Both the position numbers and the translations under genes were made by a program. This document shows, piece by piece, positions 2,284 to 61,305 of a stretch of DNA of 64,000 nucleotides. The notes under the pieces are model-generated. The model ran no database searches. It was given only the letters and a program-made list of their open reading frames with translations, and was not told where the DNA came from. Each line of letters starts with the position of its first letter. Within the stretch, counting starts at the first letter, position 1. This DNA is from Hormiphora californensis (lineage: Eukaryota; Animalia; Ctenophora): assembly GCA_020137815.1 (NCBI GenBank), contig CM035352.1, positions 6,324,001-6,388,000 of the forward strand, given 5' to 3'.

Positions 2284-5200
2284 ATGGCTGCCTTTATGAG
2301 AAAGAGTCTGACTGGCCTGGTCAGCAGCGGATCTAGGTGTCTTTCCGTCTCCGCACCCCGACACGCCAAGGTGTCAGTTCTAGGTGCTGCTGGTGGTATT
2401 GGACAACCCCTGTCTCTTCTTCTGAAGCAGGTACAAAGTTAGATAAAATATTGTGTCTATAATTTAGACCTATCTTCTCCTCAGTCTACCCTTATCTCCC
2501 CTCGCCCTCCCCTCAATCTCCCCTCAGTCTACCCTTATCTCCCCTCAGTCTACCCTTATCTCCCCTCACTATCCCCCATCTCCCCTCAGTCTACCCTTAT
2601 CTCCCTCAATCTCCCCCCATCTCCCCTCAGTCTACCCTTATCTCCCTCACTATCTCTCTCAATCTCCCCTCAGTCTACCCCCATCTCCTCTCAGTCTACC
2701 CTTATCTCCCCTCAGTCTACCCTTATCTCCCCTCAGTCTACCCTCATCCCACTCACTCCTCCCCTCACTCTACCCTTATCTCCCCTCAGTCTACCCTTAT
2801 CTCCCCTCAGTCTACCCTTATCTCGGAGTTGTCACTGTACGACGTTGCCAACACTGTGGGTGTAGCAGCTGATCTCTCTCACATCGAGTCAGCCGCCCAA
2901 GTCAAGGGATACGTGGGTGAATCTCAGCTAGAGGAATGCCTTAAAGGTAGGTGCTGTATGTCTTTCAGGTATAATACCTGAAGTACTAAATCTCTCTCTT
3001 TCGATCTCTTTCGATTATGATCTCTCTAGCTCTCTCCTTCCCCTCTCTTCCTCCATGTAACTTTGTATCCCTCTCCCTCTAGGCAGCAACATTGTCATTA
3101 TCCCTGCTGGAGTCCCTCGAAAGCCCGGTATGACCCGAGATGATCTGTTCAACATCAACGCGGGAATTGCTAAGGCACTAGCTGATGCTGCCTCAAAAGC
3201 GTGCCCTGAGGCTATGCTGTGCATCATCTCCAACCCCGTCAACTCAACCGTCCCTATTGCATCAGAGGTTAGTAAATGGGTTTTTGGACCAAATTACATA
3301 GCAACTGGGAGAGTTTGTTACTTATATACACTAAAAGACATTAAAAGATTGAGTTGTTAGACATCGAATTTCTCAGCTATGTTAACTTAATCAGGCATTT
3401 CAAAAATATACTATGATTCATTGTTCAACAATCAAATTGGTATTAACACTCACTTAAGAGTGTCCTCTCAAGCTAACACCGAACCGGAATTCTTATTCGA
3501 AAACGTTTTTTAAGTGATCCGAATAGCCCCTTTGATGAAATCCCGTAGATGGTTTGGGTGTATTAAAGCACATTTTAGTGTCATCCTACTTCAGGTCAGG
3601 TTATTCAGGTATTTTGGATTTTATGGTCAGAACCGACTTATGAACAAAATCAGTAAGGTCTTTGGTGATCTCTTGAATTAAAGGCTAAAATATATTATGT
3701 CAGGTTCCAAAACCAACAAATTTAGGTGTTCAGGGTCAGGGTTTATGGTTTTAGGGTTCTACCGAACGACCTCAGCAACAAAATATAAGCTATCGTCGCG
3801 CGTAAATGGAACTCACTTTAGTCAAACTATCTATTGGTATTTGCAGAATTTGTTATCCGAAAAAACCAAACGGGACACTTGGTTAGAACATGGGTCAATT
3901 ATCCCGAATGTATTAACTTGATTTTATGAAACAATTCTTGAGGACGCTCAACACTTAGTGTTATAAGATGATTTCGATACGCGTTTAAGGTAGAAAATAC
4001 TTTGTCAAAAAATGATGCATCAGGCAACGAAAAAACCTATCACCACTGAACATTATGACCATTTTGGAATCAATGTGGCTTAAATTAAGTCCAAAAACTT
4101 GGACATTTAAAAACATTAATTATAAGACGCATACCACTTCCCGTTTTTTTTGGTATCGTCTAGGCAAAATACCTATACAGTACAACAGAGGTTGCAATCA
4201 CTGGATCCATAAGCTAGCGCCTATATCCCACTGACTTTATGATGTTCTGCATCGAATGTAGTCCGTCTGTAGTAGTACCTGTTATACGTCCATGGTGGGA
4301 CATTTAACAGAACCACTTAAAACGAGGCCGTCTAGCCCCCATTAGATTTTTGATCGTAGAAACGATAATCCACGAAAATCGAACACAGATGTTTGAATGT
4401 CCTTGATTGATAAGCTAGTTCTGCCAGTGTAGGAAGCCACTACTCCAGGGATAGCGAAGAATCGTTACGTGAGGTATCTGTCGCGTTAGTTCCTAGCGAG
4501 AAGTGCATGTTTACCACTGTCTCTGCAGGTGAGAAGAATTTCGCGAAAAGGAACACAAGGCAGAATCGGCACGACTAGCAAAACCCATGTGGAATTGTCC
4601 TTAACCAATGATTTAATGATGCAAACACGCAATTCAGAAAAGAAGTTGTACCAACTGAATGAGCATTTTAACGATTAACTGCATAGGTGTTAGGAAGCTA
4701 TAGGGATCCGGCGTACAGAAATACGAATGGAGGTGCAGACTTTCCGTTAGTTGCCCTACGTTGTACTTCAAAAACGTGCAGCCTCCGTTTTCTACCGACT
4801 TCTCGTTCTGTATGCGATGAGATGTAACTTATCCTAAAAGAACAAAGGACCGATTTTGGCAGCACAGGCTTTAATCACTGTGGATCACTTCTTTACCAAG
4901 TATTTAAGATTCAAACACCACATTCCCGTAAAAATCCTCGACTGTTTTGCTCATTTTATTCAGCAATTTTTAAAACACCGTTTATGACATAAAGCATGAT
5001 GGTGTTGTATCACGACGTTCGCTTCGTACATTGTCGATAAAAATGGGGTTGCAGACTTTCGATTTGTCTTGAAAGTCACGTTTACCGTTCAAAAGATGTG
5101 CGCAGCGGGTTTCAAACCTAGACCCTTAAATCTTTATGCTAGGACCTAAAAAATAAAACGATTTGGCGATGGTACATTAGATTTTTTTAGTGCCCCCCCG

Positions 5201-8200
5201 AGAACATTGGTCAAGCCACAACGATTTATATCTACCTAGGATGTTACTTCGGTCTCTCAAGAACTGTCAGTTTCCAGCCGAATATACTTTAGAACATCAC
5301 TCAAGACTGGAGTTTGGTTTGAGCTTTCCAAAAATGCGGGTGATTCCCTATTATAGTAAAGGCCGTTAACAAAGTAGTCTTCAAAAATCAGTAGAATTGG
5401 ACTTACTGCAATCACCAGACTTGCGAGTATTGGGCCTCCTGCTAGGATTCCTAATTTTACAGCAGATGTGTAAGTTTGGCAGTCTTGAAGGACCATTCTT
5501 CTCACTGTGGTGACTCTACTTATTGCCAACATTGTCATTGCGAAGAGCGACAGTTGAGAACCGGTGGTGCTGAGAACCCCAAGAAAGGAGCACTCTGTAG
5601 AACTATACCATTCGTAACGTTTCTGACAATAGTCTCCAGAGATCATGTAAATCTGGTCAAAGTAGGATACTGCAATTAGATAAAGTCCTAAGCACCAGTC
5701 TCCAAGATGAATCATCGTTATACCAAGTTGGTTCAGGAACATTTCATATGTTTCTTGGTGGGTTAGTTTCGAGCCTGATCTCACAAGAGAAACAGTGTTC
5801 AGCACTGTCGACATGGTTCCCACGATGTAGCTGCCTATCCTCAGATGGTTGTTTTCGAAGATGTTAAGGGTACGCTAACCAAAAATTTTTTTCGAGTGCA
5901 GGGAAATCTCTCACCGTAGGGTTGTAGGCCATACCAAGGAGACCTCAAATATGCAATTTTAGCCCTTAAGTCGAATTCATATTTTTGCTACAGCTGTTTA
6001 AAAAATGTCCTGTAAATACGTTTTTGGCATCTCAAAAATTTTTTTCTAAAGATAGGAGCATGAAAATTTGGGGATTTGAAGAGGACATGAAGGTGAATAA
6101 CCACAAAAAATTTTTTCGCAATCCGAGCTGATTTCCGGTCCTGAGATGGATTTCTTTTTTTCCACTTTAACGCCCTATTTGGCAAAGTTCCGAAAACATA
6201 TGAAAGCTGTAAATTGGTGAAAAGTTGCGTCTAACGATTATCTAAGTGGCCATAAATTTTGGGCGTGTCCTTATTTGAGATAAGCTGTACAGAGTTTTTT
6301 TTGTGAAAGCCGTCATTTCAGAAATAAATTAATTCCCTGTATCTCAAAAACGACTGATCGTAGAGACCTGAGACTATGCTTAAACGATTCAGAAGGTCCG
6401 ATTTTGGGGGGGTCTTCTGAGAGACATTTTGCTCCTACTTCAACCGTTTTTGCTGTAATTGCGAAAAACAAAAACCCATCTTCGCCATCGTGGATTTTTT
6501 GTGATTTTGTTTTTGGTGATTATAGGGACCCATATGGACCAAATAGTGAAGGAATTAGCTTGTTACACACTTTTCCATAGTTTCGGTCCTTTCTTAGCTA
6601 AAATTCCCTAATTACAGGATATTGGAGTTTAGCTTTTGCCCTTTTCATAGAATTTGTTTTTCGCAATTACAGCAAAAACGGTTGAAGTAGGAGCAAAATG
6701 TCTCTCAGAAGACCCCCCCAAAATCGGACCTTCTGAATCGTTTAAGCATAGTCTCAGGTCTCTACGATCAGTCGTTTTTGAGATACAGGGAATTAATTTA
6801 TTTCTGAAATGACGGCTTTCACAAAAAAAACTCTGTACAGCTTATCTCAAATAAGGACACGCCCAAAATTTATGGCCACTTAGATAATCGTTAGATGCAA
6901 CTTTTCACCAATTTACAGCTTTCACATGTTTTCGGAACTTTGCCAAATAGGGCGTTAAAGTGGAAAAAAAGAAATCCATCTCAGGACCGGAAATCACCTC
7001 GGATTTCAAAAAAAAATTTTGTGCTTACTCACCTCTTTGTCCTCTTCAAATCCACAAATTTTTATGATCCTATCTTTACAAATGTATTTTTAAGATGCCA
7101 AAAACTTATTTTCAGTTCATTTTTCAAGCAGCTGTAGCAAAAATATGAATTCGACTTGAGAGCTCAAATTGCATATTTGAGGTCTCCTTGGCATGGCCTA
7201 CAACCCTACGGTGAGAGATTTCCCTGCACTCGAAAAAAATTTTTGGTTAGCGTACCCTTAAAGTGGCTTAAAGGTTGACAAGATACCTAAAACTTTTCGT
7301 ATATCGTCTTATTTTGATTTATCATTAATTTTCAGCATTTTTTCAGAATTTTTTGTCGGCTAGAAAAAAATTCGAAATAGGGGGTCTACCGATATTGTCA
7401 GCACTGGTTTTACTGGGCACACTCACTGCGTCTCGCAAATTGAAATTCATGTTTCCGGTTCCTCAAAAGATAAAGACTTGATCTTGGTTGCGTTGGATTG
7501 GTCTCAATAAGACCTTTCCAACGCTACCAAAACGGTTTCTGTATCTCATCAGGAACCGGAGATATTACGTTATCAATTTTAAAAAAGGCACACTCATTTG
7601 TCAGTAGACCCCCTATTTTGCACATATTTCTAGCCGACAAAAAATTCTGAAAAAATGCTGAAAATTAATGATAAATCAAAATAAGACGATATACGAAAAG
7701 TTTTAGGTATCTTGTCAACCTTTAACGGGCATTCAGGCTGGCACTCATCCGAGTAATCTCCACAGCTTACCACTCCATTGCACACTTGTGGCAAGTCCAG
7801 ATAAGTATCACTGGAGTTACACTTGAAGTTGTTTTTACAGTTTTTCTCGTCAGAACCATCCCCACAGTCGTCTTTAAGGTCACACACTTGTTGATATTGC
7901 ACACACCTTTTATTGAAACAGGGGAAAATTTGATGATCATACCATGAACTGTTTTCAATTTTCAGCAAAGTTGTAACTGTCTTATCCCATGTGAGGGCCC
8001 GGACACTGTCGCTACGGGTTTTGCAAGTGTCACCAGGTACATCGATCAGTGGGCATTCAGCATCCAGACAAATGTTGTTGCATGCGGCGTAGACATAGTT
8101 CTCTCCGAACAGATTTAGACAGCTGATTTTCTCATTGGGAAGAATAACCATTGTAGGCTTCGTTACATTAAGAACTGTTGGTACGAATCCGGACTTGTGT

Positions 8201-11200
8201 TCTCTGATCGAGCAGTTGGAAAATTGGTATGTCTCGTTTCCTTTAGAGAGGCAATGTGGCAGTATTTTTAGTCCGTTGTATTTAGGAGAGGTGTTATTAA
8301 CACCTCCCATCCCTAAATGGTTAGCAGCAGCACAGAGATAATTTTCAAAAGGACAGGTGGGAATCTTGTCACAAAGTTCCGGAAATCGTATGGATTTGCT
8401 TTCTGACGGGCACAAAAGAACCGATTCACAGTCTTCGTAGCTGTAGGCAAAATTTTTCGAGCCACACTTTTTCCACTGCGTTTCATCTTCATCTATTCCA
8501 TCGATACAGTCCTTCTGCCCATCCATAAGCCATTCTAACGGTATTGGTAGAGAGATATTCTTTCCCACATACTGTGACTGGAATCTTCGAACACAGTTGA
8601 TGCTAGTTTTACTAATGCAGATTTCATCTTTCCCTGAGTTACAATCAACATGTCCATCACACTTTTGTCCCTTATGGATTTTACAGCCCGGCTCAGGTTC
8701 AAAACACTCATTATTGTAGTTATCGTCACATAGATTTTCATATCCCTTGCAGTATCCCCAGATGGAAATGTTTGTTGGGTATCCCTCTGACAGACACTGC
8801 ATTGCAACTCTATCATGATCACTGCAGTTGGTCTGATCCTGCCCATTGGTACATACTGGATATAATGGCCTGGAGCACCGCATACTTTGCTGGATCTTGA
8901 TACGTTTTTTGAGACTCGCATGAGTACATGTGGTATGGTCAGCAGTGATCCAATTGTCGCACCCAATTTCATCTTCTCCATTGGGACAATCTGACTCGCC
9001 ATCACACATCAAGAAAGGAGTTACCCACTTGTCCCCACACTGTACACCATACTGCACACCATTACAGTGTGACTCATGGTCACAATCGCCAATATCCATT
9101 TTTTCATCATAAACCGTACTGTCATTCCTGCTGTTGCAGTTTACCATGTTCAAGTCTCCATCACACTGGTAAGAGTCATCGCAGCGAGTAACTTCTTCAA
9201 CTAGGCTTCCAGCCCGGTAAAATTGGTGTTTTCCGAAATTATATGTACACATGTACGTTTCACATAGGAGAGTTGTTCCATTCAGCAGCCTGGACCCTGA
9301 ACACCAATCGTGCCCACATACCTGGTACGTTCCTGGATCATCTTGACACTGGCTTGAGAAGTCGAAGAAATAACAACTACCACTAATACCCATTAGATAT
9401 CCCACGGTGTAAAGTTCATCTGACCAGGGACATTTGAATCCCCAGCGCCCGTTTTTTTCGCACTGTTCGTGCAGGTAGCCATTCACTTCAACAGCTGTAC
9501 ACTTGGACGTAGGATTGGTGGTTGGGTCTATTGTAGGGGCTGACGTTTCACCATGAACGGCTTCGGCTGTATTGGTATGTGATGTGATAGATGCCAACCA
9601 GAGTACAAGTGTAGCACAGAACAGGGCCAGCTTCATCTCGCTCCTCTGCTAGAAGGGGAGAGATGCGATGTATGAGAACAGGCTGCCATCGAGACTACTA
9701 TCGAGGGACAGATTGCAGCAACAAATTATATGAAATATAAGTTGGGCCTAGCCCTAAAAAGGCCATCGGTACCCTGACTTTGGTCGATGTCCTTTTTAAG
9801 AAAGTACAACAAAGTGGTAATAACTCATCTCCCTCAAACAACTCTTTTCTCCCCTATACGAGGCTACCTATGTTCCGGCAAAGCCAATCTAAAAGACATA
9901 AATATTATAATAATATCACACATCACCCACACAAATGAGCAAACCTGTACTAGTAGTATAATAGGGGGGGGGGGGTGATAAATGGGTGATTTTGGACAGG
10001 TAATTGACCCCCTTGGTATTAGGTTGTTCCACAATGATCGGGACTGTAGGTGTAGCTAAAAAACTAGACAACTTAGGGAAATTCTGCCGACAGCATCGTG
10101 TTTTTGGGATATTTTTCTCTTATAAGAAGCTTCGTTAAGATCCTGTTGCGTTTTTATAGGAACCAGGAAGTGTACTTTACAAATCTCACTTTTTTCGCCG
10201 CTGCAAATGAAAAAAGTGACTTTTTTCAAGAAGCTCTGAGGTCCCATAAAATTCATTAATCAATAAAAAAAACAGTACTAAGTGTTCGGAAATTGTCTGG
10301 GCTTAAACATAAGCGGAATATTTTTTTGAATGAATTTTGAATTTGCTCGGCGCAGGAGTCATTTCCTGTTGAACTTTAAAATCCGAATTTTCAAGAAACT
10401 GTGGCCCTTGCCAGCACATAGAGCTTCCAAAACACAATCTTGATTGCTAAAAGTATAATTGAAACGATTATCTTTGTGAATCCATTCATTTTAAACCTTT
10501 TAATGGTCATTTTTATACCTTTTTTGGGGTTTTAAAAAAATTGCCCCAAAATCGCCACTTATTTTAGTCATTTTTTGGTCATTTTTTGGGAACTTTTGCC
10601 GATATTGAACAACTAAACCGAATTTTTCCAACGAATTTCACACGAATGACTTGATTAGGTCCAAGTCTAACCCCTCCCGGCGTAAAATTAAATTTCGGTC
10701 ATAATAAGGTACCTTAATTGGTCGATAATTGGTCGGGCAGCGGCGGGTATTTCGAGATATTGAAAATTGGCCCTAAATCCGGAACCAAACAGTTAGCGAC
10801 AAAACTAGGGGGGGGGGGTGACACGTAACACTTTGTAACACTTTGTAACATGTGCAGAAAACTTTTTGTGCACGTTACATGTTACAAAGTGTTACAAAGT
10901 GTTACAAAGTGTTACAAAATGTTACAAAGTGTTACAAAATGTTACAAAGTGTTACAAAATGTTACAAAATGGGCATTTTTTGCAACATTTTGCAACATTT
11001 TGCAACATTTTGTAACACTTTGTAACACTTTGTAACACTTTGTAACGCTTGTAACACTTTGTAACATGTGCAGAAAACATTTTGTGCACGTTACATGTTA
11101 CAAAGTGTTACAAAGTGTTACGTGTCACCCCCCCCAAAACTAATACCAGTTTTTCTCTTTCAAATTAAGGAATTGACCTGGTAGTACCGTCAGTTTGATT

Positions 11201-11470: not shown

Positions 11471-11517
<47 letters not shown>

Positions 11518-13119: not shown

Positions 13120-13166
<47 letters not shown>

Positions 13167-13328: not shown

Positions 13329-13408
<80 letters not shown>

Positions 13409-16448: not shown

Positions 16449-16536
<88 letters not shown>

Positions 16537-16707
16537 CCCTCGCTTATCACTTCCTCACGAGGGCTCTATTATATGTTGTATTCTCTTGATTTCAGTTATT
16601 TGATTTTGTGTACCCCACATATTTGCTGGGAAAAATATCAATGTGGTAATCTGTTTTCAACGTTGGTGATTTTCAATATTTTCTAATCCACCGATACCTT
16701 CTAGCCG

Positions 16708-19700: not shown

Positions 19701-22700
19701 GCCTCTACCATGCTGTACAATGGTGGGGTGCTCCCTGACACGTTGAAGACCTCCCTGTAGACCCTATCGAACTCTGAGTAATTAGTGGCACCTGGTGGAT
19801 TTTAACAGGATTAAACAGGATTAAAACAGGATTATAGATAGATGGTATTGTGCTGATAGATCTTAGTTCCCTAAGCTAGAAAGTAGACCTTGCTCGAACC
19901 TGTTTCTCCGGATTAGAACATAACAACACCTTACCTCGTGTTATGAATGGGTTACCTCGTGTTATGAATGGGTTATCGTTCACTATGAACAGACCACTCC
20001 GATAGAAATCCTGGATCGGGGCGTATTTAATCAAAGGGAGGACTGCGTTAGCCATGTTGAAGATGGCCAACATGGCTGACACACCGTACACGATTCTCGG
20101 TTTGATACCGTCTGAGAACCTGTGTAAAAGAAAATGTTAGATACCATTTGGTTTCTTGGCTATGAAATACCCCTACCTGTAGTCGCTTTGCTTTGCTTTT
20201 ACCTGTAGATGATCTTATAGGCTCTGGTTCCACTGATGAGAAGGACAGTAACCAAGGACCCGTGACTCGAGAAGCTAAAGAGAACGCCCAAACAGGAACA
20301 ATATATCCCCGACCTCCACTCCTTATCGTGGTTACAGAACTCCCCCACGTAATAGAAATGTGCTATTGTAAGAAGAAGCAGGAAGAAACCCATTCCCAGA
20401 TCGTACAGGATCAGAACAAGCCGGAGGAATTTATCGACCCGGATGTGTGGATGTGAGCTGTACTCAAACCCAAACGTTAGGACATTAATCAGATTACAAA
20501 AGAAGATGAGAACAGTGATGATGATTGTCAGCATGACAAGACTAAAGTGTTTGATGATATTCTGGTCGCTCGAGAATGCTCCACTGACACAGTGGTAGCA
20601 CTCGTCCAGCCCCGTTGCACAATCCCGGACACCATTACAGAGGCGTTCTGGATCAGTCCAGGTGATGTTTTCATCCTCGCAGTAGAACCGGCCCGGACAG
20701 AGCTTCTCATCGTCCAACCCCGGACAATCCCTCACTCCATCACAAAACTGGTCCAGGCTGATCTGCCGGGTGATCCCATCTGTCTCGTTGAGATCTACAC
20801 ACTCGTAGGAGAGTGTTTCAAGGGGAATGTAAACGCCTCGACCCCACCTTAGTTGGTTGCAGAAGATCTCTGGAACACCCATTCGGACGAAACAGGTGCG
20901 CATGCAAATAAAGAAGATCTCATTCCGGATTACTTGCAGCATACTGATACACTTGCGAAGGGGAGTCAGCATCTCGTGGTCGATGTTTTCCACCACACAT
21001 GTCTCATTACACACACCCATAGCAGCCTCAGGTTCAGGGATAGTACACACGTTTATATCAATGGGTCTTTTCTCGTATCGAGGCTCTTCAAGGACGGTGT
21101 AGTTGCATGTAAGTGGTTTGGCCTCCTCACACGCACTTTCATCCTCACCCCCGGGGCAATCAAATTTCCCATCACACAGCTGATCGAAGGTGACGCAACC
21201 CGTTACATTACCCTGGCAGTAGTGGAGGGAGGTGTTTGTCCTATCCGGACAATCACACTCATCTAGGAGGCAGTGAGAGACCCCATCACACCACAGGATA
21301 TTGTTAACAGAACACTCCCACTCTTGTTCCAGACATGGCCCCATCAGCCGGGTAGTTGTCCCCCAGTCATTCCAGCTGCAGGTGTAGAGAGGGGACGGGA
21401 CAAAGGGGCACGTTTGATTTTCCAGCATTGGGTTACCTCCTTTCATGTTGAACTGGTTGACTTGGTTACAGCGGAGGTTCCTTGAGCCGTCACACATGTT
21501 CATCCAAAGTTGGGAGTGTAGGAGATCGAACACCCTCCCTTGGGTCGTCAGGAGGAGGAGGAGGAGGAGGGGAAACATTGCTGCCAACAATCGACCGAAT
21601 CAAGTAAACAACCAATCAGAACTCGTTATTTAGGTCACGTGACTGGTAATCAGCCAATCAGGGACCAGTATTCACTGGTTCGGTCGGTTCCTAATAGCTG
21701 CAGTAGTACAGTTGTTGTGATCAGTGGAGGGGGAGATGCTTTTATAGCAGTCCGATAGGGGCAGAGTCTACTAAGAAATGGTGGAGCCACCGATATACGC
21801 AGAATTCTATCAGTTTTGTGCCCCCATCATGGGGTAGTGGGGGAGAGTTAGTTAGAGACTGAGAGGTCAAGAGGCGCAGAATTCAGGGGGCGTATATATT
21901 TTTATTTCTTTATTTTACGAAACAAATAAATATAATTGCTCCCCGATTAATATTTTTACGGGGGGTATGGTACAGCCATTGATTGGTTGATATTTATAGC
22001 GGGTGGGAGAATAATTTCTTGGTAAATAATACCACTCCCGTAAAATATTGATCGGGGGAGCGCTTATATTGTTAGTTTCGTAAAATAAAGAAATAAAAAT
22101 ATATACGCCCCCTGAATTCTGCGCCTCTTGGCCTCTCAGTCTCTAACTAACTTTCCCCCACTACCCCATGATGGGGCCACCACGGAACTAACTGTTCCAT
22201 TTCTACCCCACTCAGTGCTCTTGACCTCTCAGTGCCTCTAACTACCTCTCCCACTCTCAGTGTTCCCCGATCGAAGAATACGACAACTACAAAGTCAGCG
22301 AGTACGGCTCTGTGAAGGGTGCTGATCGAATGAAGGCCGAGATTTATGCCCGTGGCCCCATTGGATGTGGTATCATGGTGACGGATAAGTTCGAGAACTA
22401 TACGAGTGGAATTTACAGCGAGTGGAAGTTGTGGCCGGTTATCAACCACGAGATCTCCATTGTGGGATGGGGTGTTGAGGGTGGGGTTGAGTTTTGGTGG
22501 TTGAGGAATAGCTGGGGCAGCTACTGGGGTCTTAACGGATTTGCCAAGTAAGAGAACCTGCTAGTCGAACCTTGAATGTGTGTTTGTATGTGTGAGAATG
22601 TATATTGTCAACTTTTTTCTGGGTGAAGCCCAACGCTTGTAAAGGTCCAAAATGAAACAATTCCAACTACCCCCTGTAGGGTTATGATGCACAAGAATAA

Positions 22701-25700: not shown

Positions 25701-26203
25701 CCAATGATCTGGCAGTGGGAGATACAGTCTTTCTATTCCTGTTGTGTCATGATTTCACACGCATGAACAAAACAAATCATGCTTCTTTCTTTCCCTCCCT
25801 CTCTCTCTCTCTCTCTCTAGTCGATGCCCCTAGTTACTAAATTCACAGGCTCCCTTCCATCTCCATTCACTCTCGCCCCTATTCAAACCTACATCCCCTC
25901 CCTTGAATTGAGCGAGACACAATGCATTAAAGTGACCCCTCCTACACACTCCTAAATTTGTACCCTAATCTCTCACGTTGTGAATCCAAAACCTAACTAC
26001 CCCCATCTAACTCTCACTTCTTCTCTCTCTCTCTCACTTCTTCTCCAAAACCTTACTACCCCTATCTAACTCTCACTTCTTCTTTCTCTCTCTCAGGGGG
26101 AACTTACTGGGGAGAGAGCGGATGGTTTAAGATGATCAGGGGTGTCAACATGATCGGTGTTGAGGATGCTTGTGATTGGGCCGTCCCCAAAAAGACATGG
26201 TAA
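16708..26203 (+). CDS. CTSZ: Tandem two-domain cathepsin Z/X (papain family C1A), ~12 exons
   Basis: Exons approx. 16708-16783, 16880-17023, 17190-17291, 17461-17631, 22261-22547, 22680-22840, 23038-23173, 23328-23465, 23648-23838, 24212-24362, a degraded one at ~25610-25670, and 26097-26203. Signal peptide; RNQHIPVYCGSCWA occurs twice; HEISIVGWG and RNSWG.YWG. There is one extra G at ~17212. Confidence 0.9.
17932..18904. mobile_element. Tc1/mariner-type MITE, TA TSD, ~165 bp TIRs
   Basis: ta|ccgcgtgggccaataaaaagggagggtc ... gaccctccctttttattggcccacgcgg|ta. Confidence 0.9.
19160..21578 (-). CDS. Nested LDLa-repeat 7TM GPCR (GRL101-like, no LRRs), 3 exons, apparently complete
   Basis: ATG 21578 ([10 protein letters not shown] signal). 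Exons 21578-20203, 20119-19935 (or -19956) and 19791-19160 join in frame. LDLa motifs ([26 protein letters not shown]), TM3 [26 protein letters not shown]7 [11 protein letters not shown]. Confidence 0.88.
21593..21692. mobile_element. ~105 bp dispersed MITE carrying two CCAAT boxes and a GTCACGTGAC palindrome; other copies at 39897-40005 and, partial and reversed, 23856-23914
   Basis: Three homologous copies in the window; TIR caggaacc(g/a)accga / tcggtcggttcctg. Confidence 0.85.
21821..22176. mobile_element. ~350 bp almost fully palindromic foldback MITE
   Basis: ccccatcatggggtagtgggg ... ccccactaccccatgatgggg; arms pair over ~145 bp. Confidence 0.85.
22910..23002. mobile_element. Short pogo/Tigger-like MITE (TA-CAGTC ends); related copy at 54668-54734
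   Basis: tcggaccccgatttaccg ... cggtaaatcgggggtccgactgta; second copy tacagtcaaac...gtttgactgta. Confidence 0.7.
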
Positions 26204-26900: not shown

Positions 26901-28500
26901 CTATTCCCAATTGTAAATTCCCTCATTTGCATTCGTAGGATTATATCGCTCTATTGTTGGTAACTCCGTCGTGCTCCCTTCCTCCTTCTCCTCGTGGTAA
27001 TCAGGGAGATCAGATACAGTGGGTTCAGAATGGAAAGTAGGAACCATCGTTTCAGAAGTAAACATTCCAGGACTTTTGTCCATCACCTCTATCAGAAGAT
27101 CATCTGAGACTTGTCCTTCCGAGTTAGCTGCCGTGCATCTGTACCTGAAGAGAGAGGGGTGGTAAGTTGAAGTGCCTCTGTAAGAGAGTTGTTGTTGAGT
27201 AAGGGGTGAAGAGAGATAAAGAGGGGGTAGTTCGGTGTCTGAAGTTTGCTCGAACATCTCACCCCGTCTGAAGAGGGGACCAGTGTAGCATTTAGCCTGT
27301 GAATGAACGAGAAAAAAGGCAGAACCATGAAGGGAAGTTGGCAAACAGTTCACCCATTAATTAAGTAGAAGAAGAAGATCAGGGCTATTTTATGTTACTA
27401 TTTAGTTCAATTAACATTTACCATCCACTATCACTCTTCAGGACCTTCATAGAGAGACTCACTCTGATAACATCACTTCCTACCTCGTTATCATACTCCC
27501 AATTCTGAAAGTGCAGGGGTGTTATACTGCGAGGGTTGTTAACTGAGAATGGAGACTGGGTGTGAGTTACTGAGCACAGGGTTGTTAACTGAGAATGGAG
27601 ACTGGGTGTGAGTTACTGAGCACAGGGTTGTTCTGAGAATGGAGACTGGGTGTGAGTTACTGAGCACAGGGTTGTTCTGAGAATGGAGACTGGGTGTGAG
27701 TTACTGAGCACAGGGTTGTTCTGAGAATGGAGACTGGGTGTGAGTTACTGAGCACAGGGTTGTTCTGAAAAGTTAAAGTGAGGTGGACTGAACGTAGGGT
27801 GTAAGTTACTGCGAAGGGGTATGGCTTTTGATGAAACGGAATTGAAGGGGAACAGAAGAGAATGAAGTGTCTTCCAGCAGGTCATTTGGAGAGAGAGTTG
27901 TAAGGGGTTTTGCAGGATGCATGATAGAGTCTGGATAGGGTGCGGTACTGACCAAGGAACTAAATTACATATATATTTGGCCCCTCTAAATATATATAAA
28001 ATTTCCGATCGGACACTAAGTCTCATACATATATCCGAAAGTTTATTCAGCTATAATTGGATAACTGGAAGACCCTCCAGAGATATATGTTACGAAGTAG
28101 CCATGATATTCATGAAGGGCCCTCCCGCTGGATATATGTACCTCATATAATAATAGAGATGGGAATTGTGGGAGGGGCATGATATTTATTGCACACACCC
28201 ATTTCCCTCTCCAGCATGGAAGAAACAAGACTGGGCCATTTTGTCTCACAAAGGACCACTCATATCAAATGTTCAACTCACAAGATGTGGGAATATCTCC
28301 ACATGGTTCTCCTCTTCCATCTCCCCCACTTTGACAATCCTGGCCGATGCAGGGGGGTCCGCTCTCACACGACAGAATAGTAACATCCTGTCTCCCTCGA
28401 ACAAGAACTGGTCTGAGCTGAGGTCGATGATCTCTGGTTTGTAGGACCTTGCCAGCACAAATTGGAGAGTGGTGAAGTAGAGTAGCGGGAGAAGGGACAT
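26901..28500 (-). CDS. Secreted single immunoglobulin (I-set-like) domain protein, 3 exons, 181 aa
   Basis: Exons 28500-28282, 27504-27422 and 27144-26901 join in frame (546 nt). Signal peptide, EGDRMLLFCRVRADP ... KSDSGWYRCTAANSEG, then an acidic S/T/P tail; no TM seen. Confidence 0.8.
27533..27769 (-). repeat. 44-47 bp minisatellite (~5 copies) just upstream of the Ig-gene exon-2 acceptor
   Basis: Unit gggttgttctgagaatggagactgggtgtgagttactgagcaca. On the gene strand each copy contains ccattctcag. Confidence 0.9.
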
Positions 28501-31952: not shown

Positions 31953-45661
<13,709 letters not shown>

Positions 45662-50270: not shown

Positions 50271-50309
50271 TTTTATAATCCAGTGTCGTATTGTTTAGTG
50301 ATAGGTGTG

Positions 50310-51618: not shown

Positions 51619-51835
51619 GAATACAAATGATTGTGCGAGATTTTTAATTATATAGCATCTAATTTTATTCGCTGTCAGATATTTAATTTTAGCAATTTAC
51701 CACCACACATTTTTAACGATTCTTTATCTATTGCTTCCCTATATTTTCTATGTGTTTTATTCTCTCCTAAGTACCTTTCCTATCATAATGGCTAATACCA
51801 ACTACCTTTTAAACTCTTGTCTCAGGTTAACTGAC

Positions 51836-53239
51836 ATGCCGAAAAAGACCACAAAAAAGGGAAACACTAAAAAAGCGAAAGTTAGCCCATCTTCCTCTAA
51901 GCCCAAACAGACAGCAACTAAGCTGGATGATCACTATGTCATTAAACCCTCCCAAGTGTACACATCCTACCCCTACACAACTTACAAACCTCAGTGTGTC
52001 GGCTCGTTCTGCTCTGATAAAATGGGGGAAATTGTCCATGTTAATGATAGCTCCGTTTTCCCACGACTCAATATCCCTGAGAAACTTCCGCTAGACCTGA
52101 ACTCTGGGAACCGCACCCCTCGTACTCCTTCATCAACAATTCTGTTCCGGCGAATCCTAAAATGGATCGTTCATACTGGTTTTGATGTGTCGAGTGTTAG
52201 CGTTGTAGCACGGCGAGGCATACTAAAACACATTGGATACACCCTGTACAATAGGTACAAAAACCCATGGTCCTTTAAACTTTGTAAACACAAGGGTGTT
52301 GTGTATTTGTACGAACCTTCAACAAAACCACAATCAACAGATAGTGATTCACAGCCCTGGTTATATTGGGGTTGCCGGTATGAGGAACTGGTGACGTCAC
52401 GCAATCATGTGACGTCACGTGAAAAGGAGTTACTACAACAGCTGTCGGGTAGCTCGGTTAAGTTCTCGGGGGATTCTGTTAAGTGGTTACGGGACGGGGT
52501 TAATGAGGAAGAAGAGAAGAATGACAACCAATCCAGAGAGGAGTCTGGGGATAAGGAGGGTATTACAAAACCCACAAATTTATCTGAAAATGATAAGGAG
52601 GATGTTACGAAACTTACTGAAAATGGTAATAAATCAGAAATAAAAGAAGGATTGGATCTACCTGATCATCTGATTGAGAACCTCCGTGAGAACGTCCAGT
52701 CTATGGAACCCAGTTCAAGAGAGCAGGAAGAGAAGCTCTCTAAGATATTCCAGAAGAAAAAATCCTCTTCATCTCCCCAGATCGGATCCTATCGTGGGGC
52801 ATACACCATGGTTACCGGCAAGATCAGTCACATTAACGTCCTCCTGTGTGGTGAGGTGGATGCTGTTTGTCCAGAGACTGGCGAGTTAGTGGAAATTAAA
52901 ACCTGTACAGAACGGAAACTTCCAGATCGGTTGTGTTTTGGGTGGACTCAGTCCTTTCTGGCGGGTGTAGGGCAGCTCCATTTTGGGCTGAGAGATGGGG
53001 ATGGGGTTGTTCACAAGACTAAAACTATGAAGGTTGGGGATGCGGTGAGGGGGGCCAAGTATTGGGATCCAGCTGGTGTGATGGGGCTGATGGGTGGGGT
53101 TATTAGATGGGTGGTGGGCAGTGTTCCAGAGGGGTTCAGTGGGACACTCCTGTATATGGGAGAGGGGGAGATCTTGTTGTCGACCCAGGCAGATGGGGGA
53201 CACTTTTTGCCCGAGTGGTATACCTCATCTCTAACATAA
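51836..53239 (+). CDS. DXO/Rai1-family decapping exoribonuclease-like protein, single coding exon
   Basis: VARRGILK.I, YWG.RYE, LLCGEVDA, VEIKT and W.QSFLAGV..L.FG.RD match DXO/Rai1 motifs; there is a ~130 aa charged insert. The start is placed at the ATG following the AG at 51825. Confidence 0.85.
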   Translation: MPKKTTKKGNTKKAKVSPSSSKPKQTATKLDDHYVIKPSQVYTSYPYTTYKPQCVGSFCSDKMGEIVHVNDSSVFPRLNIPEKLPLDLNSGNRTPRTPSSTILFRRILKWIVHTGFDVSSVSVVARRGILKHIGYTLYNRYKNPWSFKLCKHKGVVYLYEPSTKPQSTDSDSQPWLYWGCRYEELVTSRNHVTSREKELLQQLSGSSVKFSGDSVKWLRDGVNEEEEKNDNQSREESGDKEGITKPTNLSENDKEDVTKLTENGNKSEIKEGLDLPDHLIENLRENVQSMEPSSREQEEKLSKIFQKKKSSSSPQIGSYRGAYTMVTGKISHINVLLCGEVDAVCPETGELVEIKTCTERKLPDRLCFGWTQSFLAGVGQLHFGLRDGDGVVHKTKTMKVGDAVRGAKYWDPAGVMGLMGGVIRWVVGSVPEGFSGTLLYMGEGEILLSTQADGGHFLPEWYTSSLT

Positions 53240-53489
53240 ACTGATATGTTTCAATTTGACAGTGACAGGATGGAGGTTACTGGTTAGCTAGTGAGGTTAC
53301 TGGTTAGCTAGTGAGGTTAGCTAGTGAGGTTAAAGTTTTATGTGATGACTGATGTATTTTAGTATTTATTTTATCCGGGTTTTGTGTTTCATGTGACTTT
53401 TAATGATCAGTATCATTTAAACTTTGCTGTTTTTGTTTTTCTCGACTTTATCCATCGACTGAATGCCCCATAATCCATATCATTCTTTC

Positions 53490-53652
53490 TAACCCTAACC
53501 CTTGTTCGGTGTTTCTAACCCCATCCCTTATTTGGTGTTCCTAACCCCATCCCTTATTTGGTGTTACTAACCCCATCCCTTATTTGGCGCTTCTAACCCC
53601 ATCCCTTATTTGGCGCTTCTAACCCCATCCCTTATTTGGTATTTCTAACCAT
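53490..53652 (+). repeat. 25-bp tandem repeat (ctaaccccatcccttatttggtgtt, ~6 copies) upstream of the phosphatase acceptor
   Basis: Direct inspection; each copy carries a CTAAC branch-point-like motif. Confidence 0.9.
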
Positions 53653-53671
53653 ATCCCCACAGTATGCCATT

Positions 53672-54632
53672 ATGTCGCAAGTGAAGGAAGTCCTGCTAAT
53701 CCGTCATGGTCAGGGAGATCACAACAGACTATTTGCAGAGGGCCGAAACGCCGAGGCATTCGCCCTCCGTGATCCAGCTATAAATGACATTGGAATAGAG
53801 CAGGCAACGACCCTGGGAGAGAAGTTTAGAGACCTGAAAGAGGAGGAGAGAAAGGTGGATTTAATCATCACATCGTGCATGAAGAGGGCCCTGATGACCA
53901 CTGAAAAAGTGTTTGGTCCCGTCCCTCCATGTCCTGTCATCGTGTCAACCCTTCCAATAGGTATGAGAACAATATACTATGGGGCTGTGTGTTTTAGTAA
54001 TTGGTGGGTCGTTTGAGATGTGATAAATCGTGTGATGTGTTAGATTTGTGTGATGTGTTAGATTTGCTTCTTCCCCTCCCCCTCAGAGCATTATGACCCC
54101 TCAGAGAATGGGGACGGCAACTGCAACTACGGGACCCCCTTATCCGAGATATCGGGACAGTTTCCTGGCTATGATTTCTCTCTTGTTACTGAAGAGGAGT
54201 GGTGGACTACCGAGGAATCCCATGAACACGTAGGAAATACATTGCAGTAAAACCCAATGCTTTTGAGGGGTTAAACAATAGTATTGTTGTATATTGAGAG
54301 AGAAGGTTGGGGGGGCTAGCAAAAGGGAGGGAGAGCCGAGAGGTACACCGCACAAATGCATTCTAATACAACATATATTAGCTTGTCTAACTTTCTCCCA
54401 TTTTCAGTTGTTGGAACGATGCCAGGAATTCCGGAATTTCCTCCTGGCACGTCCAGAGAAACGCATTGCTGTTGTGTCCCACGGCCGGTTTCTCACCGTC
54501 TTCACTGGAGAGGACAAGGAACAGTTTAACTCCTTTTGGAACTGTGACGCACGGGAGTTTGTTTTGTCAGAGGATGGAACTATGAAACAGGGAAAGGTGT
54601 TCCTAAGAGTTGAAACTTGGCCTTGGAAATGA
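53672..54632 (+). CDS. Histidine phosphatase / phosphoglycerate mutase-like protein, 3 exons
   Basis: Exons 53672-53960, 54087-54229 and 54408-54632 join in frame. LIRHGQGDHN, G.EQA, ITS.M.RAL.T, RPEKRIAVVSHG.FL, N.D.R. Confidence 0.9.
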
Positions 54633-55012
54633 TTTGAACAGTGGCCGCGGGGATAGAAAAAAGAAATACAGTCAAACCTCGATTTACCGGACCCTCGATT
54701 CAACGGACCCTCGTTTTACCGGAGTTTGACTGTATTTTCATTATTTGTGCATATGTCTTTTGTTGTTGTTCACCCATATATCAATCACGCCTCACACACA
54801 CCTAATTTCTGGTATATGTTATTTGTGTAATGAATGTTTTATTTACTAAAATCTCTTAAATTATCTCTTACTAGATGCCCGTTATCTCTTACTAGATGCC
54901 CGTTTCTTTGTTTAGCAGGTTCAGTAGTAACCAATACTGTTTACCCCTCCCGCCCGCCGCTGATAACTAACAATGCCCCCCCTAACTAACATGCCTTCAT
55001 TTCTACAGGGAC

Positions 55013-57124
55013 ATGATGTCTTCCTCAAAACGAAGAAAAACCGATTCTAGCAACAGCTCAGATTCTGAGTGGAGAGAGGAACCAATCCGGGAACGGCATG
55101 CACGCAGGAAAATGAAATGGATGAATATGACTAAAAAGGAAGAAGAGAAAGAGGAGGTAAACGCATCAGCAGTGGAATCAGGCCGGAGATCACAGAGGAT
55201 TTCAGGGCGAAAAAGAGTGTCTTACTCCCACGAATCGTATGATAAAATGTTTAATGAAAAGGAAAAAAGTTCTGGTGATGAAGAAAGCGACAACAGTTCT
55301 AGTTCCGGAGAGGAGAAAAACAGCAAAAGTTCCGGAGATCAAGACTCGTCATCAGACGAATGGTCGGAATCAGGTTCGGGGAAGGATTCAGACGCCCCAC
55401 CACCAGACTATTTTGAATCTGATCTTGATGCTCTGGGCGTGTCGGACGAAGACAAACAAGCAATGCTTGAAATCAAAGCCAAGAGCCCCCACATGTCCGC
55501 ATACGAGTGTAAAAGGGCGTTAAAACTAAAGCAGCAAAAGGATATGATGGATAAACTTGGGTTACTCGATGATATTAACGCGTTGAAACCTCCTCCAAAA
55601 CCGGCACCGGTGAAAAGGAAACCTAAGCCCAAGGTGGAGATTGTCCCGCGGAAATCCACAAGGATATCAGAGAGAAAGGAGACCATTAATTATTACAAAG
55701 AGGAAATTGAATACTCCAACAACACTCCCTTCCCTAAAACTCCCTCCGAACCACTCGGCCCAAAACATCTCCCGGTAGTGGATATTTGCGGTCCTGACTC
55801 TGCCGCCCTTGCTCCTCTTTATTGTATCATGCAGAAGTCTAACAAACGTGATGAAACTGTAGACAGTGCCAAAAGTGTTGAAACAGAAAGTTTGAAACCT
55901 GAAAGTTCTGTGGATGTGGCCGAGTTCCAACCACTACAACCACAGGACATGACCATTCGAAGGGAAACATCATCCACCCCAACAGTGGATAGGATTCTGA
56001 AACGAATCTGGAACCAGAGCAAAGGGATCCGAGTTCGTGCCTGTAAATCTCGGATAGCATCCCTTGCAGTCCACTCCGATCCCGAGACATTCCTAGTAGC
56101 CAGTGGTTCCCGGGACGGCGAGGTCGGTTTGTTCGCTATAGTTGGGGATCAAACCCAGCCAGTTGCCGTGAGACTTCAAGGGGAGGTTGATGTTGTGGGG
56201 GGACTCAAATTCTCGCGGGATAAACTATACACGTGTAACCATGAGGGAGTGTGCAGGGTCCTTGATCCCGTCACATCTTCATATCAATCTCTCATCGAGC
56301 TGAATCACAGTTTCCGTTCTTTGGATATCCGCTCCAACCGGCCCACTGACGTCATCTACCTCGCGGGTATGCAATCTTATCAGGTTAACAAGGTCGATAC
56401 CAGGACCAAGTCTGTCATTGCAACCTACCCCGAAAAACGAGATAAAACCATGACTAGTCTTTGGGATGTGAACTGTCATCCATTTGACGAAAACTATTTT
56501 GTAACAGCTACAAATAACGCTCTTGTAGTACTGTGGGATGAGAGGAGAACAGACATGCCGGTTCAGATTCAAGATGAAATTCACAGCAAGTCAGTTACCA
56601 GCGCTGTGTTTGATCCGGCCACAGGGGACTCTCTCATCACCGTTAGTTGGGATAACACTATATGTAGGTCGAGATTCAAGGATCGGACGGGGTTTGTAGT
56701 TGAGAATAGGATGGTACATGATAATGATACGTCAAGTCAGGGGTCAGGCACCAGGTTCAGGGCTGAGTGGTACCCTAACTCAGATAAGGTTTTTGTTATC
56801 GGATCCTTGGATAAACCCCGGAAGTGTGAGTTTTTTAACTCCAATATGAGGCTTCTTGAGACGCTCACCCTAACAGATGATCCTGTCTCTGTGCCGTCTC
56901 TGGTGCGGTTCCATCCGAACACAGGAGCCATTGCAGTGGGTAATTCGAAGGGTTATGTAACGGTGTGGCATGGTTCGAATGAACTTGAAGAAAAGAACGA
57001 AGACGTTCCTAACACTCCTAACACTCCTAACATTATGTCTAACATGTCTACCCGTCCTGAAGTAAAGGAGCTACTGAAATGTACTGAGGAGGAGGAAGTA
57101 GAATTAATACACATTCCCGAGTAG
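55013..57124 (+). CDS. WD40 protein of WDR76/CMR1 (DDB2-like) type, 703 aa, single exon
   Basis: Charged N-terminus with SAYE..R, PRKSTRIS; RIASLAVH, VNCHP....YFVTA, HSKSVTSAVF.P..G..L.T.S.DNTI, HDN.T.....RFRAEW, IGS...PR. Confidence 0.8.
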   Translation: MMSSSKRRKTDSSNSSDSEWREEPIRERHARRKMKWMNMTKKEEEKEEVNASAVESGRRSQRISGRKRVSYSHESYDKMFNEKEKSSGDEESDNSSSSGEEKNSKSSGDQDSSSDEWSESGSGKDSDAPPPDYFESDLDALGVSDEDKQAMLEIKAKSPHMSAYECKRALKLKQQKDMMDKLGLLDDINALKPPPKPAPVKRKPKPKVEIVPRKSTRISERKETINYYKEEIEYSNNTPFPKTPSEPLGPKHLPVVDICGPDSAALAPLYCIMQKSNKRDETVDSAKSVETESLKPESSVDVAEFQPLQPQDMTIRRETSSTPTVDRILKRIWNQSKGIRVRACKSRIASLAVHSDPETFLVASGSRDGEVGLFAIVGDQTQPVAVRLQGEVDVVGGLKFSRDKLYTCNHEGVCRVLDPVTSSYQSLIELNHSFRSLDIRSNRPTDVIYLAGMQSYQVNKVDTRTKSVIATYPEKRDKTMTSLWDVNCHPFDENYFVTATNNALVVLWDERRTDMPVQIQDEIHSKSVTSAVFDPATGDSLITVSWDNTICRSRFKDRTGFVVENRMVHDNDTSSQGSGTRFRAEWYPNSDKVFVIGSLDKPRKCEFFNSNMRLLETLTLTDDPVSVPSLVRFHPNTGAIAVGNSKGYVTVWHGSNELEEKNEDVPNTPNTPNIMSNMSTRPEVKELLKCTEEEEVELIHIPE

Positions 57125-57664
57125 AGGTTTTAACCGGGTACGAGAGGTTTTAACTGTTAAAACAAGTTGATTTTCAAAGTTGGTTAAACAACAAAAAGAC
57201 TCGGTGTCATTTTTACAGAATTTTTACAGAATTTGTCAATTGAATATAATTGATGCGAGCCGAGACTAAATGAACCGAATAAATTATTCTTAGACTATGG
57301 ATGAAATCTATCCAATTGATCTTATATTATATTTATCAATAATCAATTAGCAATGATTGTTAAATATTTTAATATATGTTACCCAATTGCGTTTTATTAT
57401 GACCTCTCCCCCTCCCAATACCACTCTCACCCTCTCATTACCCCTCTCACCCTCTTTCAATACCCCTATCCCCCTCTTTCAAAACCCCCTACTAACACAG
57501 AATTACGGGGAGACTGACGCCAGTCTTTGTGCCAAGCTCTGTTACAGTGGCGTCATATTGCCCGCCCGCACAGCGCCGCAACGGTTTATGCGGGGGGCTA
57601 TATGACAGAGCACCACTTTAACAGAGTCCCGTAACCACGTGGCTGCATTTGGTTGATGCCATGG

Positions 57665-58556
57665 GTAGAGTGGTCTTTCTGCCAATCTTTCAGATTCAGA
57701 TATTGCAATGGTACGGAGTGGTCTTTCTGCCAATCTTTCAGATTCAGATATTGCAGTGTGGTAGAGTGGTCTTTCTGCCAATCTTTCAGATTCAGATATT
57801 GCAGTGTGGTAGAGTGGTCCTTCTGCCAATCTTTCAGATTCAGATATTGCAGTGTGGTAGAGTGGTCCTTCTGCCAATCTTTCAGATTCAGATATTGCAG
57901 TGGTACAGAGTGGTCCTTCTACCAATCTTTCAGATTCAGATATTGTAGTGGTACGGAGTGGTCCTTCTGCCAATCTTTCAGATTCAGATATTGCAGTGTG
58001 GTAGAGTGGTCTTTCTGCCAATCTTTCAGATTCAGATATTGTAGTGGTACGGAGTGGTCTTTCTGCCAATCTTTCAGATTCAGATATTGTAGTGGATAGA
58101 GTGGTCTTTCTACCAATCTTTCAGATTCAGATATTGCAGTGGATAGAGTGGTCTTTCTACCAATCTTTCAGATTCAGATATTGCAGTGGATAGAGTGGTC
58201 TTTCTACCAATCTTTCAGATTCAGATATTGTAGTGGTAGAGTGGTCTTTCTGCCAATCTTTCAGATTCAGATAGTGTAGTGGTACAGAGTGGTCTTTCTA
58301 CCAATCTTTCAGATTCAGATAGTGTAGTGGTACAGAGTGGTCTTTCTACCAATCTTTCAGATTCAGATATTGTAGTGGTAGAGTGGTCTTTCTACCAATC
58401 TTTCAGATTCAGATATTGTAGTGGTACGGAGTGGTCTTTCTGCCAATCTTTCAGATTCAGATAGTGTAGTGGTACGGAGTGGTCTTTCTGCCAATCTTTC
58501 AGATTCAGATATTGTAGTGGTACGGAGTGGTCTTTCTGCCAATCTTTCAGATTCAG
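57665..58556. repeat. 46-48 bp minisatellite, ~19 copies
   Basis: Unit gagtggtctttctgccaatctttcagattcagatattgcagtgtggta. Confidence 0.95.
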
Positions 58557-59574: not shown

Positions 59575-61064
59575 TCATATTCTAGTTAAATCCTCGCTAG
59601 GCCAAGTCTCTCCTTCCCGTTTCATATCATCTATCAAATACTTATACTTATTCTTATACCCCTTCTTACATCTCAAAGCCCTCAAACATTTCTGCAAAAA
59701 TCCCAACTTTCTATATGAATACTCAATACCAATTGCCAACACACAGTTTATTAGCACTAGACCCAAGAGATAAAACCTAAATGAGGTTGATTTAAGATCG
59801 GCTAACTCCAAATTTGGAACGGCTGTGTTTTTAACAAATAAAATCATGAGTAGCAAGCCTATTGATGCCACTGTCGCCACCAACATCGGTGGGTTGGTGT
59901 AAAGAGGCCTCCTATAGGGGTGCCCAATGGAGAACACTAGGGCTAGAGTAACAAACTGAAAGGAACTAACTATAAAGTTCACAGTTGTCTCATAACAAGG
60001 AATGTAATTATTCCCCTCCTCTATCGCTTTCTCTCTCTCAGCCGTGAAGGGGTTATACCACTCTTGCTGCTGCACAAACCACATAGCTAATAGGATGAAC
60101 CCTACACTGAGTGCAGTGTGGAGCACAAAACTGTAGAGCAGATAGGGGTGCATTAGACTCCCTCGGGGTCGCTTTCTAGACAGTCTTGTGGAGGGCCGGG
60201 TGTATCCTAGTGCGAAATCAAATAGCAGCACTATCGCCAGATCCTCTAGTAAGTACTGGTAGTCCCCTAGGATGGAGTCATATTGTACTAGGAGGATAAC
60301 AGATAGGAACTGGATGACGGAGTACATGGCCGTGAATCGGAACACTGCCATGCTGTTCTCCAGGGCTCCCTGGCCTTCCTTAAGGAGCTCTGGAACGCAG
60401 CTAATGTTGAAAATGGAGCTGGTAAAGGGAGCTGCCAAAGATGCCTCACCTGAAACAGGCACGGGGGTTACTTCGTTGATCATAAGACATAAAGTATGAT
60501 TGATCGTGTCGGGTGGAGAAGTGTTATTCATGGAGTTCGGAAATACGTCGCTCGTGGAATCCGCCTTAAGTCGATCAAGTAAGTCAAGCAATCTTATGGG
60601 TGACTATATATCGGGGTTAGAGGGGGACTAGGAGCTCGACTCTTGGTACTAGCACTAAAGTCTAGAACCGGTGCTAAGGAGTTAGTACCGTTACAGCTGG
60701 TAACGCACTGATGTAATGAGATAGTATTGAGGTAGTTGTAGAATGCAGAGGGAGGGAATGCAGAGAGAAGTTGGGAAATGGGATCTTTCAGTTCACGACC
60801 AATAAGCTCAAATCGATTTATTTTGTCTCTTAATTGCAGGGGAATTGAACTCAAATTAATAGAGATAGGGTAACGGGATACAAGAGTCCCAATACATAAT
60901 AAGGATATTGCAGATACAGTAAAAACTCACTTTTAGAGAGGGCTATACCGACGTTAGCGTGCTGTAACGCTTCACAATCGTTTGCACCATCACCACACAT
61001 ACAAACACTGTAGTCTCGTTTCTGTAGTTCATCAACTAGCTGCATCTTTTGCTCGGGAGAAAAC
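59575..61064 (-). CDS. P5B-type cation/polyamine-transporting ATPase (ATP13A2/3-like), last two exons; the 5' part lies beyond the window
   Basis: Exon 61064-60931 reads (R)FSPEQK..LV..LQ...[21 protein letters not shown]. Exon 60449-59575 reads [41 protein letters not shown]. Confidence 0.95.
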
Positions 61065-61305
61065 CTGGGGAGAAGAAGTGGTTAGCGGTGGTGTGAGAAA
61101 AACCTGGGGGAGAGGAATTGGTTAGTGGTGGTTGTGAGAAAAAACATTGGGGAGAAGAATTGGTTAGTGGTGGTTGTGAGAAAAACATTAGGGAGAAGAA
61201 GTGGTTAGTGGTGGTTGTGAGAAAAACCTGGGGGAGAAGAAGTGGTTAGTGGTGGTTGTGAGAACCACCTGGGGGTAGAAGTGGTTAGCGGTGAGAAAAC
61301 CTGGT
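61057..61305 (-). repeat. ~39-42 bp minisatellite built from the ATP13A acceptor junction (~6 copies)
   Basis: Gene-strand unit accaccactaaccacttcttctccccag|gttttctc; the last copy opens the exon G TTT TCT CCC GAG. Confidence 0.9.

Follow-up and report, generated by a model that had tools for sequence, protein, structure and literature searches.

The 64,000-nt window analysed here lies on contig CM035352.1 of the ctenophore Hormiphora californensis, and within it we modelled 11 genes by hand, comprising 49 acceptors and 38 donors, as well as 37 complete introns with a median length of 178 nt. Roughly 10 of the modelled acceptors are backed by pieces of RNA contigs and the remainder come from reading frame and homology; the intron set excludes two introns of a cathepsin Z-like gene that flank a degraded exon. 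Our analysis showed that four of the 49 acceptors lie within a tandem array, each in its last copy: one in MDH2, two in a thrombospondin-like gene (TSP35 and TSP19), and one in ATP13A. In all four arrays the repeated unit is the end of the intron, its AG, and 4-16 bases of the exon that follows, an arrangement known as a mirage from amphioxus genes (discussed below). All statistics refer to this one window, which had been flagged for the pattern beforehand, and the p-values are not corrected for that.

For each of the 49 acceptors, we determined which exact word crossing the junction and recurring upstream is the longest. This word reached 50 nt at the MDH2 acceptor, 23 nt at TSP19, 20 nt at TSP35, and 11 nt at ATP13A, and the same exact-word search found none longer than 9 nt at the other 45 acceptors in the window. 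A first-pass annotation, made from the letters of this DNA, had described such arrays as ending exactly at the functional junction, but they continue past it into the exon, by 14, 16, 4, and 5 nt in MDH2, TSP35, TSP19, and ATP13A, respectively, and these exon parts encode conserved residues. Tandem Repeats Finder (TRF) recovers every array that the annotation had named. In MDH2 the unit consists of 7 intron nt, including the AG, and 14 exon nt, and the array contains 11-bp sub-repeats; 10 upstream copies of AG/TCTACC precede the authentic one at 2810/2811, and one further copy has AC. All four upstream copies in TSP35 keep their AG, and every unit carries the branch-point-like word CTGAC, with an overhang of 8 nt. 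TSP19 has a single upstream AG copy, just 4 exon bases in its unit, and an overhang of 4 nt. Each ATP13A unit carries CTAAC, and of its 6 upstream copies the AG is kept in four and lost in two. Thus, in all four arrays the unit spans the boundary and is locally derived, and many of the copies, though not every one, carry the splice signal. The decayed copies, in which the AG has been lost twice in ATP13A and once in MDH2, are a point in favor of regarding these arrays as mirages.

The four units are unrelated to one another, as all six pairwise similarity scores fall within the range of shuffled sequences (p 0.29-0.92). This supports independent origins rather than a single repeat family, and it bears out the annotation’s suggestion of a repeated process. 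Elsewhere, the MDH2 unit resembles a nearby 32-bp foldback satellite (p 0.013) and the ATP13A unit resembles that of an Ig-domain gene (p 0.023), two of 21 comparisons without correction, and we read both resemblances as shared low complexity.

The MDH2 array is real DNA and not an assembly artefact, because the independent DNA run X5, whose sample and study are distinct from those of the run that matches this DNA best, contains five contig pieces that match, with 0 differences, the array and its flanks, four of them inside or entering the array and one leaving it. The contigs of run X5 break within the array, so its copy number is not readable there. Splicing at the authentic site is supported by RNA for MDH2 and by homology or reading frame for the other three arrays. 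An RNA contig of run X8 (1178 nt, depth 29, 0 differences) joins 2430 to 2811, which is the last AG, showing for MDH2 that the spliceosome passes near-identical upstream acceptors, as the annotation had proposed. No alternative joint into the array occurs among the RNA contigs, which as assembled contigs lose rare forms and can show presence but not absence. Run X7 has no contig bridging the MDH2 junction, and no contig of run X10 matched. Over exon 4, this MDH2 is 92-94% identical to clusters containing Bolinopsis and Mnemiopsis proteins. At the TSP35 junction, residue 289 of thrombospondin-1 is reached from both exons, although the match of the upstream exon is weak (E 0.03-0.5), and searching proteins with the TSP exon brought up no relative. 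For ATP13A, two relatives read FAR/F[SN]PEQK across the junction. The thrombospondin-like gene as a whole (31996-45670, minus strand) encodes a protein of about 2,600 residues with stretches that by eye are leucine-rich-repeat-like and EGF-like, followed by thrombospondin type 3 and C-terminal domains and then a further domain.

Table 1. Splice sites and splice-site-associated repeats in the window, with positions counted from its first letter.
Feature	Position	Strand	Basis
MDH2 trans-splice acceptor	2270..2272	+	Loose end of the RNA contig equals the ctenophore spliced leader tail printed in the available text of PMC8527503
MDH2 intron 1, 380 nt (~54 nt with the array collapsed)	2431..2810	+	RNA contig of run X8, GT..AG
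MDH2 21-bp acceptor mirage	2471..2824	+	TRF, 13.6 copies; run X5 contig pieces
Cathepsin Z 59-nt duplication (CTAAC branch point and pyrimidine tract) before the last exon	26006..26095	+	Acceptor backed by RNA contig
Nested G-protein-coupled receptor (GPCR) 21-bp in-frame duplication across a donor	19931..19975	-	A DNA run X1 contig crosses it with no gap
Ig-domain gene 44-bp array (Ig44) with acceptor-like words, 27 nt short of the likely acceptor 27504	27532..27768	-	Acceptor from frame alone
Thrombospondin-like gene 19-bp duplication (TSP19), x2.2, exon start 33910	33907..33948	-	Junction from reading frame alone
Thrombospondin-like gene 35-bp acceptor mirage (TSP35), x5.2, exon start 34998	34983..35165	-	TRF; junction by thrombospondin-1 homology
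Phosphatase 26-bp x6.6 array (CTAAC and pyrimidines), 5 nt before the first exon	53486..53657	+	TRF
Phosphatase 18-bp duplication, 20 nt before an acceptor	54030..54066	+	TRF
WDR76-upstream 21-bp duplication, 104 nt from the modelled acceptor	54861..54904	+	Gene model
ATP13A acceptor mirage, ~41 bp, exon start 61064	61060..61300	-	TRF; junction by homology

The annotation had also listed weaker cases, and these did not stand as junction echoes. Most of them repeat the branch point or the pyrimidine tract without the start of the exon, and we rejected the repeats of the Ig-domain gene, cathepsin Z, the phosphatase, and WDR76 because their units do not span the exon boundary. The cathepsin Z duplication stops 1 nt before the exon, and the 26-bp unit of the phosphatase contains no AG; the acceptor at the first phosphatase exon is likely a trans-splice acceptor. 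An array of 48-bp units at 57664-58556 (x19) was likewise considered and rejected as an acceptor array, as it has acceptor-like words on the plus strand but no open exon after it. On the minus strand, this array reads as a 16-residue repeat rich in Ser, Glu, and Thr, in which 13 of 18 units are 48 nt long and the other five are 46-47 nt; it is possibly a coding repeat with consensus errors. On the donor side, the duplication in the nested GPCR leaves an open frame whether the exon ends at 19956 or at 19935, and the only other donor echo is a single 9-nt match. Neither the GPCR nor the Ig44 array is reached by the RNA contig pieces listed. The annotation had counted donor echoes in this gene as part of the pattern, but the window permutation described below gave no significant donor signal, with one donor-spanning array observed vs. 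0.3-0.5 expected and one near a donor vs. 1.2-1.8.

We then asked how often arrays would meet acceptors by chance, following the shuffle comparison that the annotation had suggested and running it within the window. The array set is a hand-made list of 25 non-coding arrays with a period of at least 15 and a TRF score of at least 50; shorter periods, lower scores, one GA-simple repeat, and the 48-bp array (treated as coding) were left out. Four of the 25 arrays span an acceptor and eight end within 30 nt of one. When one unit was placed at random wherever it touched non-coding DNA, 0.37 spanning and 1.33 near arrays were expected (p 0.0004 and 0.00004). With dispersed repeats removed (23 arrays), the expected numbers were 0.48 and 1.67. 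Nulls matched for skew gave 0.51 and 2.0 in the case of pyrimidines (p 0.0014 and 0.0004) and 0.43 and 1.76 in that of G/C. Spanning of acceptors is therefore about eightfold above permutation (4 vs. 0.4-0.5, p about 0.001). Among the seven arrays in introns of 800 nt or less, three span and five are near an acceptor (p about 0.01), and with the four spanning arrays removed, four remain near an acceptor where 1.3 would be expected (p 0.036). Of the 37 introns, 7 have a near-exact duplication at the 3′ end and 1 has one at the 5′ end (p 0.028), but spanning counts taken by themselves are similar for acceptors and donors (4/49 vs. 1/38, p 0.27). The acceptor excess is real in this window, and the selection of the window for the pattern adds to it. 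As for the junction-focused duplication mechanism that the annotation had proposed, the excess speaks for it, and the lack of a donor-side excess and the pattern-selected window speak against it, so that it is neither shown nor excluded. Clustering at acceptors is likewise seen for arrays that end before the exon, and a protected zone fits this better than a mechanism specific to the junction.

Tandem arrays make up 9.4% of the window, and tandem repeats have been reported to make up 13% of the Hormiphora genome, in which non-coding indels are also numerous (PMC8527503, available text). Such arrays are frequent here in any case, which counts in favor of the explanation preferred below. We believe that the four arrays are probably junction minisatellites of the mirage kind, begun by tandem duplication seeded by microhomology, enlarged by later unequal exchange, and tolerated as the acceptor adjoining the exon is the one used. 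In the initial step, slippage or repair between direct repeats of 3-8 nt would copy the intron end and the first exon bases head to tail. Consistent with this, the three clean junction-spanning arrays overhang by 3, 4, and 8 nt, compared with a random median of 0 (the chance of at least 3 is 0.08 and that of at least 8 is 0.009). Ordinary minisatellite turnover, of the type described for amphioxus mirages in the available text of PMC3087553, may then have produced the many copies, the sub-repeats, and the partial decay. A duplication that spans an acceptor would leave the protein unchanged if the copy adjoining the intact exon is used. The choice itself could be made by signals on the exon side, last-copy use being what we observed for MDH2, and such exon-anchored choice of an acceptor agrees with classical duplicated-site experiments.

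Why so many arrays should be found at acceptors is a separate matter, and here we suggest that the excess may reflect longer persistence rather than targeted creation. The zone from the branch point through the tract to the AG would be a wide target of purifying selection, and arrays anchored in it may escape deletion; such anchored arrays could also be homogenised from the constrained last copy and so stay recognisable. In our preferred account, purifying selection would act on this zone across 15-40 nt, more than the width of the donor signal. At 26 of the 49 acceptors there is a CTRAY word no more than 60 nt away, mostly at 15-31 nt.

Several observations weigh against this interpretation. 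Five other clean duplications overhang by 0, 1, 1, 2, and 7 nt, so microhomology is not a general rule. If neutral tolerance were all, 0.4-0.5 arrays should span an acceptor instead of 4, and tolerance fails to explain the excess because the null already permits such placements; persistence is itself an inference. RNA evidence is available for just one of the four arrays, and from contigs that lose rare forms. Our initial explanation, that low-complexity pyrimidine tracts offer richer seeds, failed. Skew in pyrimidines or in G/C can be rejected as the cause of the excess, which the skew-matched nulls leave in place, and so can the density of microhomology, as 35 array-free acceptors with the 20 nt upstream of them are no higher in it than random non-coding sites. 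That neither explains the excess also counts in favor of the main rival to persistence, a mutational bias by which duplications arise preferentially at the 3′ ends of introns through a process coupled to transcription or splicing, such as polymerase pausing or G-rich template structures, giving an acceptor bias throughout the lineage. The same bias would account for the observed spanning and near counts (expected 0.37-0.51 and 1.3-2.0 across the nulls), for the concentration in introns of 800 nt or less, and for the difference between 3′ and 5′ intron ends. However, the figures come from a single pattern-selected window with hand-made gene models and a hand-made array list, the spanning counts are alike for acceptors and donors, and G-quadruplex-like patterns occur in only two of the seven splice-site arrays scanned (MDH2 and weakly ATP13A), with none in TSP35, TSP19, Ig44, the phosphatase, or cathepsin Z, so we rejected G-quadruplex seeding and consider the bias unlikely overall. 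As a broader conjecture, ctenophores and perhaps many marine invertebrates might have a splicing- or transcription-coupled duplication process aimed several-fold at the branch point-to-acceptor zone, with mirages at about 8% of acceptors, and we offer this only tentatively.

The remaining explanations concern what the copies do or whether they are there at all. The annotation had suggested that the upstream AGs act as isoform switches or are coupled to nonsense-mediated decay (NMD). On this reading they would be working alternative acceptors that serve unproductive splicing or isoforms with short insertions. Many copies do keep the branch-point-like word, the tract, and the AG, and two pseudo-donors are used in human IFI6 and CBS according to the available text of PMC1557585. 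Of the 19 upstream AG copies, however, 14 shift the frame and three are in frame with a stop; use of the one at 2790 in MDH2 would insert 7 residues and no stop, and the MDH2 copy at 2631 is in frame, its translation not being part of the stop count. An isoform or NMD role finds no support because 17 of the 19 would give a frameshift or a stop; the RNA contigs hold no alternative joint, and none of the 5 full-length proteins in the nearest MDH2 cluster has the 7-residue insert expected from use of 2790. The copies moreover decay and vary in phase, and amphioxus mirages are described as splicing normally (PMC3087553, PMC3902484, available text), so that this role is improbable. Even less probable is that the arrays mark introns gained through tandem duplication (the Rogers model). 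Mirages have been proposed as a route to new introns (PMC3087553), and in human paralogs introns arise from repeats at junctions (PMC2812944), but for the three arrays with introns complete in the window, MDH2, TSP35, and TSP19, the donor is in unique sequence, 40, 49, and 94 nt upstream of the array, respectively. Thus, the two splice sites of these three introns do not both lie in copies of a duplicated unit, and the arrays seem to be younger than the introns. The least credible source is a noisy long-read assembly with errors in its consensus: indel-ridden stretches do occur in the window, one of them without cover in either DNA run, but for MDH2 the exact pieces of run X5 refute this explanation. 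We therefore retain junction minisatellites of the mirage kind as the probable explanation.

Apart from this, the window has several other features. A foldback-like element lies at 1-1491, where 32-bp arrays on opposite strands flank a core with its own inverted repeat. The cathepsin Z-like gene (16705-26200) encodes two tandem papain-type domains, and the GPCR nested in one of its introns has LDL-receptor repeats. Another of its features is a 975-bp intronic stretch with inverted ends (17930-18904) that contigs of both DNA runs skip, and this is likely a transposon insertion polymorphism. At 24800-25619, which neither DNA run covers, an exon of the same gene is ridden with indels, and in the RNA contig 74 other letters stand at this place. 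The start of the nested receptor gene (8950-10020) recurs at 11500-12700 as a copy full of indels, and the assembly looks locally noisy. The genes at 50158-57124 (a methyltransferase, RAI1/DXO, a histidine phosphatase, and a WD40 protein) are close together on the same strand, each with an acceptor directly before its start codon, and this layout fits, as expected, trans-spliced and possibly polycistronic transcription. Finally, scanning metagenomes with a high-copy short repeat of this genome returned three contigs of 1.0-1.2 kb, too short for a genome-wide test. A metagenome contig (L003, 1-1230) with the same short dispersed repeat is packed with degenerate CTAAC and pyrimidine units, which hints that repeats resembling branch points are widespread in the lineage.

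The structure of these arrays is already known, and it is their rate that could matter. If the acceptor excess holds genome-wide, it would point either to a mutation bias linked to splicing or to a measurable protection of repeats by splice signals. The arrays would then also provide numerous natural cases of identical 3′ splice sites competing within short introns, where a first-AG rule would predict the wrong site, and if about 8% of acceptors carry mirages, there would be hundreds of natural experiments on how the spliceosome passes identical upstream acceptors.

The annotation had taken the phenomenon to be undescribed, but comparable repeats have been published from amphioxus and humans. 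Our literature search, which left most subscription journals outside it, found no ctenophore mirage and no genome-wide test of enrichment at splice sites. In humans, variable number tandem repeats at splice junctions have been described from F7 intron 7 (37 bp), IFI6, CBS intron 13, LMNB2, and PDGF (PMC1557585). As in Hormiphora, the monomer spans the boundary and thereby creates identical pseudo-sites, and the site adjoining the exon is the main or sole one used; in contrast, it is the donor that is repeated, and IFI6 and CBS also use their two pseudo-sites. Internal tandem repeats have also been reported to alter gene structure in human segmental duplications, where units of about 30 bp at exon-intron boundaries lengthen introns (PMC2812944). 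In the available text of that study, the protein is often altered or introns are created, whereas the modelled ctenophore proteins are unchanged.

The closest counterpart is found in amphioxus, where boundary-spanning tandem repeats were named mirages in Adh3 and also occur in the globins BflGb6 and BflGb9, troponin C, and PGBD5 (PMC3087553, PMC3902484). Amphioxus mirages have units of 10-160 bp, splice normally, and are unstable in length, and the mechanism that generates them was called unclear (PMC3087553). There are differences, as the ctenophore host has short introns and leader trans-splicing, and acceptor ends dominate in it, whereas both boundaries are duplicated in amphioxus, for which the available parts of these papers give no density or permutation figure. 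In both lineages, however, tandem repeats lie across the intron-exon boundary, and those of BflGb6 repeat the 3′ end of the intron and the start of the exon just as the Hormiphora arrays do. The Adh3 units of 10-72 bp cover the 19-41 bp seen in the ctenophore, many but not all copies keep their AG, splicing is normal, and several unrelated genes in one genome are affected. The four arrays therefore belong to a published kind of repeat, to which the ctenophores are added as a further phylum.

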